A stretch of 41,069 nt of DNA from positions 1 through 41,069 of IMG/VR virus record IMGVR_UViG_2737471864_000010. One strand, written 5' to 3'. The stretch's first letter is position 1. Each line of letters begins with the position of its first letter. The stretch is from a virus. Its lineage: Duplodnaviria > Heunggongvirae > Uroviricota > Caudoviricetes. A program made the position numbers and the translations under genes. The notes below the pieces were generated by a model, which saw only the letters and a list, made by a program, of their open reading frames with translations, ran no database searches and was not told where the DNA came from. This document shows, in pieces, positions 1,009 to 29,000 of the stretch.

Positions 1009-1083
1009 GTCCTCTTAGTTAAATGGATATAACGAGCCCCTCCTAAGGGCTAATTGCAGGTTCGATTCCTGCAGGGGACACCA
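1009..1083 (+). tRNA. argW: tRNA-Arg, anticodon CCU
   Basis: 75-nt sequence GTCCTCTTAGTTAAATGGATATAACGAGCCCCTCCTAAGGGCTAATTGCAGGTTCGATTCCTGCAGGGGACACCA with cloverleaf-compatible stems, anticodon loop CTCCTAA, T-loop GGTTCGATTCC and encoded CCA. Confidence 0.9.
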
Positions 1084-5986: not shown

Positions 5987-6049
5987 GTCGTTAATTCCTA
6001 TGCGTGGTTTTACGATACCGAAGCCCTGACTGTTACCGCAGTTGGGGCT

Positions 6050-6253
6050 TCAACTTTCTGCTCTATCAGTTATATCTTTCCCTTCATATACTTCACCTAT
6101 ATTGCTAATGCTGGCAGAACATCCAAGATGCTTGTATCTTATGATGTCCAACACGCAGTCACTACACAGCATCCGACCTGTTTCTTTAGAGTAAATGTAT
6201 GTTTGATCAGCGTCTGATTCGCTAATGCCGCAGAAACAACATTCTTTACTCAT
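6050..6253 (-). CDS. Small Cys-rich (zinc-ribbon-like) hypothetical protein between arc and ant
   Basis: 67 aa with CCFC…CSDC cysteine pairs; start overlaps the arc stop. Confidence 0.4.
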   Translation of the reverse strand: MSKECCFCGISESDADQTYIYSKETGRMLCSDCVLDIIRYKHLGCSASISNIGEVYEGKDITDRAES

Positions 6254-24406: not shown

Positions 24407-24856
24407 TTATTTCAGGCATTGCGTCCTGATGTACTCCTGCAGGTAGTTAACCTGCGCGGTTATCTTGTCGATTCCACTTCGGAGACGGTAATAATTGAGT
24501 TCAGCATCTGCTGTAAGTCCTGGGCTTTCTCCATCGCCCATGCTGCTGGCTCCGGTCGTTGACTTTGCACAGGTGGCGGCGACTTGCAGGCGCTTACGCC
24601 CAGCAGAAACATCAGCACGGAGACTTTCGATAGTCGCGTTAGCATCAGCAAGCTCCTTTGTGTATCTGGCGTCGAGTTCAGCTACATCACGTTGACGCTT
24701 CTGCATATCAGAGATGATAGATGTGGCTTTATCGCGCTGGTCTTTGTAGGCGATGGCATTATCACGGTAATGATTGACCGCCCACGACAGGCAGACGATG
24801 ATGCAGATAACCAGAGCGGAGATAATCGCGGTTACTCTGCTCATTGTTGCCCCCAC
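24407..24856 (-). CDS. Rz-type i-spanin
   Basis: 149 aa with N-terminal transmembrane segment and helical periplasmic domain; follows the endolysin gene. Confidence 0.75.
24460..24651 (-). CDS. Rz1-type o-spanin lipoprotein, embedded in the +1 frame of Rz
   Basis: 63 aa; signal peptide with lipobox VSAC followed by a Pro-rich mature region. Confidence 0.7.
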
Positions 24857-25344
24857 AAACAGACTTCACGCTCAATCTCACGACGAGTCATCAGGCCTTT
24901 CCATTGCTTACCGCCAGCGTATGTCCAGCGACGTAGCTGGTCACATGCGCCTTTGATATCGCCCTGGTTTATTTTGCGAAGAAGCGTCGATGTTCTGAAA
25001 TTGCCAGCACCCACGTTGTAGACGAACGAGTAAAGAGCGCCGCGCGTTGTTTCCGGTATATCAACTTTTATGTACGGGTTAATTTGTCTGGCGACCGTGG
25101 CAAGGTCTTTATTCAGGAGGGCTTTGCATTCTGCTTCGGTATACGTTTTACCGAGCATAATGTCTTTTCCGGTGTGTCCGTGACATACAGTCCATACACC
25201 AACGATATCTTTGTATGGTATGTAGCTGACACCTTCCAAACCATCGTTACCACTTGGTCCAGTGATTAACACAGATGCTATAGCAATAGCCCCGCCACTT
25301 ATCGCCGCTATTACGCTATTTCGTAGTGCCGGTGACATTGCCAT
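24841..25344 (-). CDS. SAR endolysin (T4-lysozyme-type muramidase with N-terminal signal-arrest-release domain)
   Basis: 167 aa; Gly/Ala-rich weakly hydrophobic N-terminus followed by an E-x8-D-x5-T catalytic arrangement (…[24 protein letters not shown]…). Confidence 0.85.
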
Positions 25345-25519
25345 TCAATCTGTCCTCGCGCTCTTTGCGCTTGTAGTACCAGTTGATGCCAAATGTGCCG
25401 ACAGTACAAAGAATACCAATGATGACAGCCCAGTCATTCAGGGAGAGAATGCCACCCATCGCAGTCAGTCCTCCGAAGCTGTAACTGAACCATTCTCTGA
25501 TTTTGTCCATACGGTACAT
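25316..25519 (-). CDS. Holin (pinholin-like, two transmembrane segments) with dual-start motif
   Basis: 67 aa beginning MYRMDK (two Met codons separated by Tyr-Arg); two hydrophobic segments; immediately upstream of the SAR endolysin. Confidence 0.7.
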
Positions 25520-25860
25520 GCTCTACCCCTTCATTGAGGGGATTTGCTCTATTTAATTAGGAATAAGGTCGATTACTGATAGAACAAATCCAGGCTACTG
25601 TGTTTAGTAATCAGATTTGTTCGTGACCGATATGCACGGGCAAAACGGCAGGAGGTTGTTAGCGCAGCCTCTTGCCACCCGCTTTCACGAAGATCATGTG
25701 TAGAAGGCCGCAGCATAACTATCACTGATGAATTCAGGATAGCCAGTGGCTACGGCTCAGTTTGGGTTGTGCTGTTGCTGGGCGGCGATGACGCCTGTAC
25801 GCATTTGGTGATCCGGTTCTGCTTCCGGCATTCGCTTAATTCAGCACAACGGAAAGAGCA

Positions 25861-26330
25861 TTTATGGCTCGCATCGCGGGAAAAAGCCCACGGTAGAGAG
25901 TCGAACTCTACAAATACTCTTACCTGTTGTGCGCTCCGTTTCGTGGAGCTAACGGCGACGCTAGTACCGGTCTATGCGTCGCACCCTTGAGGGATTTACT
26001 AAGGCGACATGCCCGTTGTTACCCACTCAATTGGACCCTCCCCGTCGCCATCTGGGTCTAGTCAGGAATCGAACCTGCCGAGGGTACATTTGAATGGGTG
26101 CCCATTATTAATCACACCGGGCCAGTGCGCCGAATTTGGTAGCGGGGAGTCGGAAGACCCCGTGATTTTGGTTTCTTAGGCCGCCATCAACATCAAATCA
26201 TCGTTTGCATTTATCTTTGTGGTCAGTTTCTAAAAACCCGCAAAGTCGACAACTCTGACGAAAACTATCGTTGTGCTGCCACAACGATAAGAGCACTCGG
26301 TGCATTTAAGCCAAGCCCCATAAGGGAGAA
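25861..26330. other. Structured non-coding segment of about 470 bp between tR' and the holin, with a tRNA-like T-arm motif and terminator-like hairpins; appears inserted relative to the lambda arrangement I recall
   Basis: No ORF of 60 aa or more; contains GGCAGGTTCGATTCCTGAC on the minus strand, a 10-bp perfect inverted repeat TATCGTTGTG/CACAACGATA, and copies of CTCTTACCTGTT at about 25917 and 26333. Confidence 0.4.
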
Positions 26331-26352
26331 TGCTCTTACCTGTTACACAGAT

Positions 26353-26412
26353 ATAAAAAATCCCGAAACCGTTATGCAGGCTCTAACTATTACCTGCGAA
26401 CTGTTTCGGGAT
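26353..26412 (-). terminator. tR'-like terminator of the short late-leader (6S-type) transcript
   Basis: Long hairpin CCCGAAAC…GTTTCGGG followed by TTTTTT on the minus strand; matches lambda tR' as recalled. Confidence 0.7.
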
Positions 26413-26543
26413 TGCATTTTACAGACCTCTCAGCCTGCGATGGTTGGAGTTCCAGACGATACGTCGAAGTGACCAACTAGGCGGAATCGGTAGTAAGCGC
26501 CGCCTCTTTTTATCTCACTACCACAACGAGCGAATTAACCCAT

Positions 26544-27035
26544 CTATCCCATACTGGAGAATTCACCATGATATTTTATCCTGGCATTTTCCATTGCCTT
26601 TCTCGCCTCCTCGATATCGTCAAAACACCCTACATGAATCCTTTTACCATTGACCCTAATTCTTCCAACCCACTTGTTTGCAGCAGAATTAAAAGTCACC
26701 CCCTTCACACCAGATGAATTGTTTTTCCTCATCTTGCTGTTCCATGAGTTTTGAGTGTTAGTAACAACACGAAGATTGGCTATCCGGTTATCAGATCTAT
26801 CACCATTAATATGGTCAATCACATCGGTTGGCCAATCATTGTAAACCATCAGCCATGCAATTCTATGGACATATAGCCGCATTCCATAAAGTTTTACCTG
26901 CAGATATCCATTTGTTTTATAGCCAACAACAGCGCCATAGATAAATCTAGATGACCGAGGTGGATTCTTCCATGTAAGAATTCCAGTATCTGGATTGTAA
27001 TTAAAAAGTCTCAATGCATCTTCACGTTTTAACAT
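26544..27035 (-). CDS. HNH homing endonuclease with AP2-like domain (paralog 2 of 3), located inside the pR'-tR' leader
   Basis: 163 aa; NYNPDTG, HRIAW, DHINGDRSDNRIANLR, GVKGV…KYHGEF. Confidence 0.75.
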   Translation of the reverse strand: MLKREDALRLFNYNPDTGILTWKNPPRSSRFIYGAVVGYKTNGYLQVKLYGMRLYVHRIAWLMVYNDWPTDVIDHINGDRSDNRIANLRVVTNTQNSWNSKMRKNNSSGVKGVTFNSAANKWVGRIRVNGKRIHVGCFDDIEEARKAMENARIKYHGEFSSMG

Positions 27036-27235
27036 AGGCGAACCACATAGATATTAGAGCCTGCTGACATAGAAATATCACCACGAGAGAAGTCGCCAAA
27101 AGCGATATTTCTCAGGCTCTATTCCTATGTGCTCTCGAGTTTATGATGCGCATGTCAGTGCGCTTAGAACTTAAAGATGAGGTGGGTAAAAACTGAAAGA
27201 ATGTGAACGGATATAAATCTGCCATTCTTGGGTCA

Positions 27236-27264
27236 AATTTACCCAACTTTATTCAAAAAGTCAA
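27236..27264 (-). promoter_or_regulatory. Late promoter pR' (-35 TTGACT, 17-bp spacer, -10 TAAATT) with the start of the Q-utilisation region
   Basis: Minus strand TTGACTTTTTGAATAAAGTTGGGTAAATTTGAC…, near-identical to lambda pR' as recalled, about 40 bp downstream of Q. Confidence 0.7.
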
Positions 27265-27306: not shown

Positions 27307-27930
27307 CTAACGTGTGACCGCATTCAAAATGTTGTCTGCGATTGACTCTTCTTTGTGGCATTGCACCACCAGAGCATCATACAGCGGCTTAACAGTGCGT
27401 GACCAGGTGGGTTGAGTAAGGTTTGGGATTAGCATCGTTACAGCGCGATATGCGGCGCTTGCTGGCATTCTTGAATAGCCGACACCTTTGCATCTTCCGC
27501 ACTCTTTCTCAACAACTCTCCCCCACTGCTCTGTTTTGGCTATATCAACCGCACGGCCTGTACCGTGGCAATCTCTGCATCTTGCGCCCGGCGTCGCGGC
27601 ACTACGGCAATAATCCGCATAAGCGAATGTTGCGAGCACTTGCAGTACCTTTGCCTTAGTATTTCCTTCAAGCTTTGCCACGCCACGGTATTTCCCCGAT
27701 ACCTTGTGTGCAAATTGCATCAGATAGTTGATAGCCTTTTGTTTGTCATTCTGGCTGAGTTCATGCTTACCGCAGAATGCAGCCATTCCGAATCCGGCTT
27801 GTGATTGCGCCATCCCCATAGCAGCCATCACATCAGTACCGGAAAGAGAGTCAGAAGCCGTGGCCCGTGGTGAGTCGCTCATCATCGGGCTTTTTGGCGA
27901 ATGAAATTTAGCTACGCTTTCGAGTCTCAT
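27307..27930 (-). CDS. Q: Late-gene antiterminator Q (lambda Q type)
   Basis: 207 aa MRLESVAKFHSPKSPMMSDSPRATASDSLSGTDVMAAMGMAQSQAGFGMAAF…, which I recognise as essentially lambda Q. Confidence 0.9.
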   Translation of the reverse strand: MRLESVAKFHSPKSPMMSDSPRATASDSLSGTDVMAAMGMAQSQAGFGMAAFCGKHELSQNDKQKAINYLMQFAHKVSGKYRGVAKLEGNTKAKVLQVLATFAYADYCRSAATPGARCRDCHGTGRAVDIAKTEQWGRVVEKECGRCKGVGYSRMPASAAYRAVTMLIPNLTQPTWSRTVKPLYDALVVQCHKEESIADNILNAVTR

Positions 27931-28475: not shown

Positions 28476-29000
28476 TTATCCTCTCCCATGATTATGGTGA
28501 TACCCCAATCGTGATTCCGCCAATTTTCTGGCATTAACGGCTAGAGATATGTCATCGTATAATCCAAGAAATATCTTTTTATTATCACTGTTTATATATG
28601 CGCCCCACTTTTTATTCTTCTTATAGTAGGCAACACCCATTACTCCAGAGCGATTATTAATAGGCTTTTTTCTGTTCCTTGAGTTCTGTTTATCATCTAC
28701 AACGCGCAAATTGCATATTCTGTTATCGCTTTTAATTCCATTTATGTGGTCAATTTCCCCATCAGGTTCGCTTCCATAAAATGATATCCATGCGATTCTA
28801 TGAGCTCGACAAACTTTTTTATTTACAGATATACGAACGTATCCTTTTTCATCTATAGAACCAGCAATCTTACCGGCATATGTTGAATTCCAGCACTCTC
28901 TTACACTTTCTCTTCTTTTGTATATAAACAAACCTGTTTCGCTATTATATTCATACAATTCATTGATTTCTTTTTGTGTTGGATATCTTTTACCGTTCAT
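28476..29000 (-). CDS. HNH homing endonuclease with AP2-like domain (paralog 3 of 3)
   Basis: 174 aa; EYNSETG, HRIAW, DHINGIKSDNRICNLR, GVMGV; strongly AT-rich; start and stop abut the neighbouring genes. Confidence 0.75.
   Translation of the reverse strand: MNGKRYPTQKEINELYEYNSETGLFIYKRRESVRECWNSTYAGKIAGSIDEKGYVRISVNKKVCRAHRIAWISFYGSEPDGEIDHINGIKSDNRICNLRVVDDKQNSRNRKKPINNRSGVMGVAYYKKNKKWGAYINSDNKKIFLGLYDDISLAVNARKLAESRLGYHHNHGRG

Follow-up and report, generated by a model that had tools for sequence, protein, structure and literature searches.

We analysed a stretch of viral DNA of 41,069 nucleotides (nt), positions 1 to 41,069 of the IMG/VR virus record IMGVR_UViG_2737471864_000010, hereafter called the window. 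Between the tR' terminator and the holin gene of this prophage, the minus strand contains a conserved RNA core of about 170 nt, at 26268..26100. The core belongs to a family with conserved structure, a short reading frame under coding constraint, and complementarity to the transfer-messenger RNA (tmRNA) of the host; it has no tRNA-like domain, that is, no acceptor stem with G3-U70, no T-arm and no CCA. We propose, with a probability of roughly one half, that this phage RNA anneals to the host tmRNA, masks its resume site, and supplies its own template for the peptide tag, or at least blocks tagging by the host. A fuller version, in which the RNA reprograms the host tmRNA in trans into a hybrid two-piece tmRNA that puts a phage-specified tag on chains, and in which at least seven phage lineages have acquired this device through the exchange of cassettes, is offered more tentatively. 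All coordinates below refer to the window and to its minus strand, unless stated otherwise.

BLAST finds the core in about 470 phage genomes on deposit, with identities of 71-91%. They include Drexlerviridae and further T1-like siphoviruses of Escherichia, Klebsiella, Cronobacter, Salmonella and Shigella, Ackermannviridae (CBA120, PhiSH19, Taipeivirus, Agtrevirus), the N4-like Gamaleyavirus, Punavirus P1/P7/D6, Skatevirus, Sashavirus and Chaseviridae. The core also occurs in 444 of the 5426 complete E. coli genomes (about 8%), and 41 of these contain the whole insert at 99% identity or more. None of the E. coli genomes or phage records matched carries an annotation of the core, and the family appears neither in Rfam 15 nor in genome annotations. 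The first-pass annotation, made from the letters of the window, missed this tmRNA-like RNA, with its tag frame and its antisense domain.

Many of the copies in IMG/VR lie directly after a lambdoid tR', as here. Elsewhere the contexts differ: in P1 the core heads a tRNA operon downstream of dmt, and it is found in Kuttervirus non-coding arrays, in siphoviruses beside genes for the tail or the terminase, and in N4-like phages. These unrelated contexts bear on the idea that the region acts only in cis, as a leader or processing region of the late operon (through RNase III hairpins, stability or antitermination), with no RNA product acting in trans. The position between tR' and the holin suits this idea, and so do the covarying hairpins that flank the core, described below, which are features of the lambda late leader; but a cis-acting leader would not explain the other contexts, and lambda manages without the core, so that we consider this explanation very improbable.

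The relation to tmRNA is visible, below threshold, in covariance models. The definition of tmRNA that was tested comprises the Rfam models RF00023, RF01849, RF01850 and RF04321, and ARAGORN. A permissive Rfam scan (E<=10) of the minus strand of the window yields matches to tmRNA_permuted, with 23.7 bits (gathering threshold 47), and to beta_tmRNA, with 17.5 bits (gathering threshold 84), both centred on the tag. Sub-threshold matches to permuted, beta and alpha tmRNA fall on the tag in every relative tested, and the best tmRNA scores of the relatives, at most 31 bits, are below the gathering threshold. The lack of any covariance-model match, together with ancestral leader sequence in close relatives, would have spoken against the first-pass annotation; the tmRNA matches are consistent, and the segment is absent from lambda. 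In the literature, we found complete phage tmRNAs and a form reduced to the tRNA-like domain (TLD-only), and no form that lacks this domain and is antisense to host tmRNA.

The message half of the RNA begins with the motif GAUAAAU, at 26209..26215, upstream of the resume codon. Its nucleotides U(-5) and A(-4) correspond to U85 and A86 of E. coli tmRNA, and are invariant in the 29 members of an alignment of diverse representatives, called A1. In tmRNA, A86 is essential for the choice of the frame, which is set by nucleotides of the U85/A86 type (PMC2481249). The resume codon, GCA in the window and GCN in the family, follows AUAAAU and opens the frame GCA AAC GAU GAU UUG AUG UUG AUG GCG GCC UAA, at 26176..26208, which translates as ANDDLMLMAA followed by a stop. 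This frame has no in-frame start codon, and a stop codon UAG, read directly, lies 22 nt upstream.

Among the loci loaded for comparison, all 83 full-length members have ten codons and a stop, yet there are 28 nucleotide variants and 15 peptide variants: ANDDLMLMAA, ANDDVVLMAA, ANDDLMMVAA, ANDEQFLAVA, ANDNTFLAVA, ANEEMYLAVA and others, ending in MAA, VAA, AVA, AAA or IAA, with a single VAP. In Cba120, for example, the tag reads GCU AAU GAU AAC ACG UUC CUG GCA GUA GCU UAA. The third position varies in nine of the ten codons, against four for the second position, and the other frames are closed in 24-27 of the 28 variants. This pattern of substitution indicates that the tag frame is under coding constraint, the signature of a tmRNA message domain. 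A mini open reading frame (ORF) in the +1 frame, AUG CAA ACG AUG AUU UGA, was rejected: its length varies, and its AUG is lost in Cba120.

The structure downstream was named first, and its pairs were then counted on A1. A hairpin around the stop codon, UGAUGG...CC...AUCA at 26163..26189, is the equivalent of tmRNA helix 5; it is 91% paired, and one of its pairs is A-U in 15 sequences and G-C in 14. Two H-type pseudoknots follow. Pseudoknot A, at 26130..26162, has the stem CGGGG/CCCCG and a loop CCGA that pairs with a downstream UCGG; six of its pairs change on both sides, and it is 93-96% paired. Pseudoknot B, at 26100..26129, has the stem CGCAC/GUGUG and a loop GCCC that pairs with a downstream GGGC, again with six pairs that change on both sides. 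Over the 29 homologs, the named structure has 90.3% of its cells paired, compared to 41-52% in slid controls, with changes on both sides in 13 pairs. The minimum free energy (MFE) z-score of the core alone is -1.7, as expected for a pseudoknotted RNA. Conserved G-U pairs assign the RNA to the minus strand. The GC hairpin followed by a T-run that had been noticed on the plus strand does exist as a sequence, but it is the complement of the first stem of the minus-strand pseudoknot, and we therefore rejected it as a plus-strand terminator.

The first 39 nucleotides or so of the RNA, AUAGUUUUCGUCAGAGUUGUCGACUUUGCGGGUUUUUAG at 26230..26268, form the antisense domain. They are complementary to nucleotides 67-107 of E. 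coli tmRNA, a target that spans the 3' strand of pseudoknot 1 (PK1), A86, the resume codon, and tag codons 2-6. Nucleotides 79-107 of this tmRNA are single-stranded. The domain of the window forms 31 base pairs (bp) with tmRNA, at -36.0 kcal/mol, and no other site on the 363-nt molecule is as good. It includes a perfect 11-mer complement; a match of at least 11 nt is found in 12 of 1000 shuffles. The ideal antisense to nucleotides 87-106 would be UAGUUUUCGUCGUUUGCGAC, and copies of the lambdoid type read CAGUUUUCGUC-AC-GUUAGCGAC; UUUGCGG(N)UUUUUA, the block that follows, is complementary to nucleotides 68-81. The motif of the 5' domain in the family is GUUUUCGUC, and the invariant 5' blocks of A1 are GUUUUCG, GCGAC, UGCGG and UUUAGAAAC.

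The same site is targeted by all 29 aligned members, the best site falling always within nucleotides 67-108. Ten of eleven subfamily representatives form 29-35 bp, at -34 to -40 kcal/mol, and the eleventh, L018, forms 23 bp at -25.6 kcal/mol. The details vary among lineages: in Ackermannviridae the complementarity is contiguous (GUUUUCGUUGUGCGUGAC), in N4-like phages (GCGAUUAUGCGGUUUUUU) the pairing extends to A84/U85, and Pantoea phage SSEM1 and Aeromonas phage phiA050 (...CGAUUAUUUUUAC) have dropped the PK1 part and pair with the A-run 79-86, for 25-26 bp to nucleotides 79-108. The pairing blocks are invariant in A1, and the linker between them varies in sequence and in length, from 2 to about 9 nt. 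On the side of the host, the 22-nt target is unchanged in Enterobacter, Raoultella, Serratia, Pectobacterium, Providencia, Pantoea, Aeromonas, Vibrio and many other gamma- and beta-proteobacteria; this conservation of the target agrees both with phage blocks that do not vary and with the wide range of hosts. The RNA's own tag codons, GAU GAU UUG, match the antisense domain far worse than GAC GAA AAC of the host. A BLAST search of E. coli genomes with the antisense sequence returned only the element's own copies.

The same complementarity would serve a pure inhibitor of tmRNA, acting by occlusion or by creating a substrate for RNase III, with the 3' part as an untranslated decoy or scaffold, for example for S1, SmpB or RNase R. 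This is the main rival of the template reading. An antisense oligonucleotide directed to the message region of tmRNA is sufficient to block trans-translation (PMC8012679), and the lack of a tRNA-like domain agrees with an inhibitor. Pure inhibition, however, leaves unexplained the strict ten-codon frame with its stop and its wobble variation in 83 of 83 members, as well as the invariant UA, all of which are marks of decoding; we consider it unlikely.

The lack of a tRNA-like domain was examined from several sides. ARAGORN calls no tmRNA in the window or in the comparison loci L001-L003, L126-L129 and L228, and no conserved T-arm or acceptor stem was seen across the relatives and flanks examined. 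A pattern search of the window for a CGAAAAC-NCCA partner found none. The entire 48-kb genome of Cronobacter phage CS01, which has the core and no tRNA at all, gave no tRNA-like domain with ARAGORN and Rfam.

Complete permuted, or two-piece, tmRNA genes with a near-identical resume and tag region are nevertheless found in L009 (7154-7563, tag ANDERFLMAA) and L057 (3485-3882). Because contigs that share this region carry a complete permuted tmRNA, the RNA of enterobacterial phages appears to have descended from the coding piece of a two-piece phage tmRNA, as far as the sequences can tell. Further IMG/VR contigs with complete permuted tmRNAs are L010, L016, L041, L051, L075, L090, L102, L103 and L123; the tags of such contigs (ANDERFLMAA, ANDESAYLMAA, ANDDSFTPMALAA and others) are close to those of the enterobacterial-phage RNA, which suggests that they are likely its relatives or ancestors.

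One may then ask if the core is still the coding piece of a true two-piece tmRNA, whose acceptor piece is unrecognised and encoded elsewhere, in the phage or in the host. The 5' GUUUUCG would be the 5' strand of the acceptor stem, and (U)AGUUUUCGUC / GCGAC the analogue of a D-loop. Permuted viral tmRNAs are homologous to the core and have a coding piece that begins with GGGCUUGACUAGUUUCGAC, which points this way, as do the spacing in the window, which mimics nucleotides 1-21 of E. coli tmRNA, and the tRNA-like elements found nearby in some phages. These elements, however, are not conserved and lack G3-U70, and the missing CGAAAAC-NCCA partner and the CS01 genome both count against an acceptor piece. 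Moreover, the spacing of the two 5' blocks ranges from 2 to about 9 nt, and in the first block GUC stands in place of the universally conserved GAC, precisely what pairing with GAC GAA AAC of the host needs. A true two-piece tmRNA is thus improbable.

Under the template reading, the RNA would be transcribed from the minus strand, within the Q-dependent late transcript, and freed from it by cleavage in the flanking hairpins. It would then anneal to the complex of host tmRNA and SmpB, where a duplex of about 30 bp would bury the host A86, the resume codon and the first tag codons, and the UA-NNN-GCA resume site of the phage would be presented from the usual position of PK1. Ribosomes rescued in this way would add (A)ANDDLMLMAA in place of (A)ANDENYALAA, and the rescue of stalled ribosomes by host tmRNA-SmpB would continue; the minimum outcome would be that host tagging is blocked. 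The phage tag lacks the residues read by SspB and keeps the C-terminal AA.

Geometrically, such a substitution is at least reasonable: the strand of the phage exits the duplex beside host nucleotide 67, at the PK1 site, and its resume codon lies 21 nt further on, against 11 nt in the host. PK1 itself can reportedly be replaced by a simple helix (Tanner et al. 2006). The proposal of a template swap was made because of three facts: the precedent of the oligonucleotide, the sensitivity to structure near the resume codon, since secondary structure around it or loss of access to A86 abolishes tmRNA function (PMC2481249), and the presence, in the phage RNA, of an intact and selected replacement of the region that is masked.

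Several points weigh against this reading. Expression, processing, formation of the duplex in vivo and use of the phage tag are inferred from sequence, and all the steps of the mechanism are computational inference. We know of no case of a ribosome that resumes on a template held to tmRNA by base pairing alone, and the free 3' end breaks the closed ring of tmRNA structures. In the core, the PK1-like pairing (helix 2) is weak, 82% paired and without covariation, and there is no 3' strand of P2. In MFE folding, the antisense domain pairs with the resume and tag region of the RNA itself (26268-26176), which might compete with binding to the host; on the folding model, this could be a closed free state that opens on the better-matched host tmRNA. 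The z-scores of the duplex against mononucleotide shuffles are only -2.0 to -5.8, modest because a U-rich query meets an A-rich target. The consistency across homologs is partly inherited, hence not independent, and the invariant host target leaves no room for host-phage covariation. Finally, the first 5' block resembles the (U)AGUUUCGAC motif of tmRNA tRNA-like domains, and part of the similarity at the 5' end could come from ancestry.

We now turn to the segment that holds the core. Lambda aligns to the window at 26544..26329, the 6S/tR' region, with 97% identity, and at 25860..25524. The 41 nt that separate the two matches in lambda correspond to 468 nt here, at 26328..25861, in agreement with the initial estimate of about 470 bp in excess of the lambda interval between tR' and S. 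These 41 nt form, in lambda, the loop of a long hairpin just past tR'. From this alignment, the segment is RNA cargo within the loop of an ancestral lambda-type late-leader hairpin. Phages mEp506 and HK446 have tRNA-Asn and tRNA-Thr at the identical insertion site. The absence of ORFs of 60 amino acids or more is borne out: none lies wholly inside the segment, and one mechanically derived 73-amino-acid ORF with a GTG start (25769..25990, plus strand) overlaps its edge. The terminator tR' of the late leader lies at 26353..26410; its hairpin, CCCGAAAC...GGUUUCGGG followed by a U-tract, was read directly, and has 97% identity to lambda 6S/tR'. Since the cargo begins just past tR', it is expected to be transcribed, in this prophage, only by polymerase antiterminated by Q.

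The two arms of the lambda hairpin, here called F (CACAACAGGUAAGAGCAUU) and R (AGUGCUCUUUCCGUUGUG), both have counterparts in the window. The outer arms F1 and R2 are homologous to those of lambda, and additional copies, R1 and F2, lie inside. F1, AACAGGUAAGAGCAUU at 26329..26344, is the 5' arm, homologous to the F arm of lambda; R1, GAGUGCUCUUAUCGUUGUG at 26280..26298, is a copy of the 3' arm, and is complementary to F1. The second hairpin, F2-x-R2 at 25845..25931, is made of F2 (25931..25913), a segment x, and the lambda-homologous R2 (25863..25845); x contains a T-arm-like GUAGAGUUCGACUCUCUAC (25911..25893) and a hairpin CGUGGG/CCCGCG. The two copies of CTCTTACCTGTT noted near the ends of the segment are, on the minus strand, AACAGGTAAGAG at 26344..26329 and 25931..25913: they are F1 and F2, copies of the recurrent arm F. 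The F:R stems have 18-20 bp, at -17 to -38 kcal/mol, with compensatory changes in 26 distinct hairpins. Release of the RNA would plausibly occur by cleavage in these hairpins. RNase III sites in the lambda late leader were reportedly mapped by Daniels et al. in 1988, and the F:R hairpins may match them.

The F/R hairpin recurs in lambda (L124 1396-1475, lambda 44786-44865), P1, N4-like phages, Ackermannviridae and T1-like phages, where it brackets tRNA genes and cassettes of non-coding RNA, and some of its loops contain tRNA-like elements, with a D-like hairpin and a T-arm, and without an anticodon arm. It looks like a shared module for the processing and/or recombination of RNA cargo.

Directly 5' of the conserved RNA lies a hairpin of 10-11 bp, UAUCGUUGUG GCAG CACAACGAUA at 26266..26289, with a like arrangement in L105, L047 and L018. 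The first-pass annotation described it as a 10-bp inverted repeat followed by a U-run. The repeat is there, at 26289..26266, followed by GUUUUCG, and the minus-strand hairpin 26290..26265 does fit a simple terminator pattern; but the supposed U-tract is the invariant start of the conserved RNA, the antisense seed, and most relatives lack the hairpin. It is probably a 5' structural or processing element, and not a terminator.

Beyond the core, toward the holin, lies a spacer at 26027..26099, with a T-arm-like GGCAGGUUCGAUUCCUGAC at 26079..26061, not alignable to Skatevirus or to other relatives and without tRNA call; it is probably a decayed tRNA-like or hairpin cassette. Much had been made at first of this element, GGCAGGTTCGATTCCTGAC, as a tRNA-like T-arm. 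The motif exists where it was seen, on the minus strand, and there is a second one, GTAGAGTTCGACTCTCTAC, in x; both lie in variable spacers and fail every tRNA test. Neither ARAGORN nor Rfam calls a tRNA or tmRNA at these motifs, where Rfam gives only fragments of about 7 bits. Of the three interpretations then put forward, a degenerate tRNA remnant, a small RNA gene, or a cargo-insertion scar, the cargo and the small RNA gene, or genes, have held up in outline, and the degenerate tRNA has not.

The next cassette, block 2, is a rarer structured RNA of about 95 nt, GUGGGUAACAACGGGC...GCUCCACGAAACGGAGC at 25933..26026, bracketed by R and F as the core is. Nine phage records match it: seven from Skatevirus, Sashavirus and Bas77-81 phages, at 82-87% identity, and, more weakly, Cronobacter phage ES2 (74.5%) and a Proteus phage (partial). 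It has no match in Rfam. Compensatory changes occur in two of its hairpins, and together with F2-x-R2 it folds at z = -4.5.

Two candidate acceptor stems were rejected in this region. An upstream R' arm and a downstream F arm can be drawn as an acceptor-like stem (C1-G72/A2-U71/G3-U70/A73), but F covaries with the downstream R (L066, L089, L018), and the G-U pair becomes G-C or A-U in P1, in L122, and in the window's own F2:R2. The hairpin GCUCC-ACGAAAC-GGAGC of block 2, taken with GCACAAC as a T-arm and the 3' strand of an acceptor, has no G3-U70 and is missing in most members.

Could the whole segment be decaying junk, a functionless tRNA or ssrA fragment left by imprecise excision or recombination? 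T-arm-like motifs in the spacers, the fragments of ssrA known in prophages (PMC9004378), and the real tRNAs at this site in mEp506 would favour such an origin. For the core, the conservation over about 470 phage genomes of several families, the covariation and the coding constraint effectively refute it, and the relation to host ssrA is antisense, not sense. We find this explanation hardly credible, although the spacer 26099..26027 may still be a case of such decay.

In this part of the window, the phage genes are all on the minus strand, as is the RNA. Upstream lie the gene of antiterminator Q (27930..27307, Pfam Antiterm), a promoter-like TTGACT-17-TAAATT (27264..27236), and an ORF for an HNH-AP2 endonuclease (27035..26544); a non-coding stretch of about 1 kb separates this ORF from the holin (25519..25316), followed by a lysozyme (25344..24841) and a third, putative ORF of the lysis cassette (24856..24407). 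Compared with lambda, the HNH_3+AP2 endonuclease gene (26544-27221, ORF 26544-27035) is an insertion, placed about 10 nt after the start of the pR' transcript. It comes after TAAATT-TGACCCAA and before GATGGGTTAATTCG, which places it past the late promoter/qut region and ahead of tR'; in the lysogen its transcription might be constitutive, within an enlarged '6S' RNA. A second HNH_3 ORF lies at 28476-29000 (minus strand), upstream of rusA-ninH, and the RNA array of Kuttervirus, too, has an HNH homing endonuclease at its border (L126 2996-3154). Over the whole window, ARAGORN, and Rfam at its gathering thresholds, report only two RNAs: a tRNA-Arg(CCT) at 1009-1083 (plus strand), near the window start, which is probably the attachment site of the prophage, of the argW type, and the sar antisense RNA (Rfam, 85.7 bits) at 5988-6055 (plus strand), which marks a P22-type immI region.

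In Ackermannviridae, the core is surrounded by an unannotated non-coding array of about 2 kb (L126 900-2990, or CBA120 134.3-136.4 kb; L128; L129), with several GGUUCGAnUCC T-arm-like motifs. L128 has, at about 1305-1385, a tRNA-like element whose 7-bp acceptor stem covaries and whose 'anticodon' loop has 3 nt, and L129 has a tandem duplication of the pseudoknot-B region. Sub-threshold matches to STnc100, a family of small RNAs of Salmonella (threshold 47 bits), are found in L129 (2762-2871, 33.4 bits) and L127 (2710-2793, 24.1 bits), at the far array ends. In L127, phage St11Ph5, a 'tRNA-Ala(cgc)' annotated at 1320-1391, 110 nt upstream of the core, carries U3-A70 in place of G3-U70, and scores higher in Rfam as tRNA-Sec than as tRNA; it is probably not an alanine acceptor.

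If the template reading is true, this RNA would be a new viral control of the quality control of host translation, present in hundreds of well-studied phages: P1, Kuttervirus/CBA120, T1-like phages, N4-like/G7C-like phages and lambdoid prophages. Even an inhibitor would be the first natural anti-tmRNA RNA. The family bears on the long-known and unexplained dependence of lambda-P22 hybrid phages on tmRNA, and on the reasons why the lambdoid interval between Q and the lysis genes gathers cargo related to translation, such as tRNAs, including those linked to Shiga toxin. It also bears on strain design for phage therapy and on tools for orthogonal tagging. It deserves a model in Rfam, since it is now called 'hypothetical protein' or left blank.

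So far, tmRNA has been regarded as self-contained, and the known phage copies are complete genes or, once, the tRNA half alone. Phages are known to encode two-piece tmRNAs, for example the pelagiphage/methylophage Melnitz (PMC9004378). With the coding piece of such tmRNAs (Melnitz; L009, L057, L010), the core shares a phage carrier, the resume context AAUAAAU-GCA-AAC-GAU-GA, a ten-residue tag ending in (L/M)(M/V/A)AA, the stop-codon hairpin and the downstream pseudoknots. It differs from them in having no acceptor piece, acceptor stem, T-arm, CCA or P2 helix, in a 5' end that is antisense to host tmRNA instead of half a tRNA-like domain, and in going unrecognised by ARAGORN and Rfam.

The core has the same order of elements as SsrA of Enterobacteria, from the U85/A86 equivalents through resume codon, tag and helix 5 to the pseudoknots, and its tag also starts with ANDD or ANDE. 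However, it is about 170 nt long against 363, with two pseudoknots against four and no tRNA-like domain, and residues 5-8 of its tag are hydrophobic (LMLM, VVLM, QFLA) where SsrA has NYAL, the residues that bind SspB being absent. A phage counterpart is the TLD-only tmRNA of mycobacteriophage DS6A, thought to interfere with trans-translation in the host (PMC4131195): both are partial tmRNAs borne by phages, but mirror images of each other, as DS6A keeps only the tRNA-like domain, and the core keeps only the message domain, with an antisense anchor.

The core also resembles trans-acting antisense RNAs, and the anti-sRNAs (RNAs directed against small RNAs) or sponges of prophages, in its 5'-proximal seed directed to a functional, single-stranded part of a host RNA. 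This part is the one targeted by the synthetic anti-ssrA oligonucleotide, which blocks tagging and was used in ribosome display (Hanes and Pluckthun 1997, as cited in PMC8012679). Unlike these antisense RNAs and sponges, the core has tmRNA itself as its target, and also carries a replacement of the region it would mask. There is a substantial chance that the core, although derived from tmRNA, has a mode of action, the reprogramming of host tmRNA in trans, that is categorically new.

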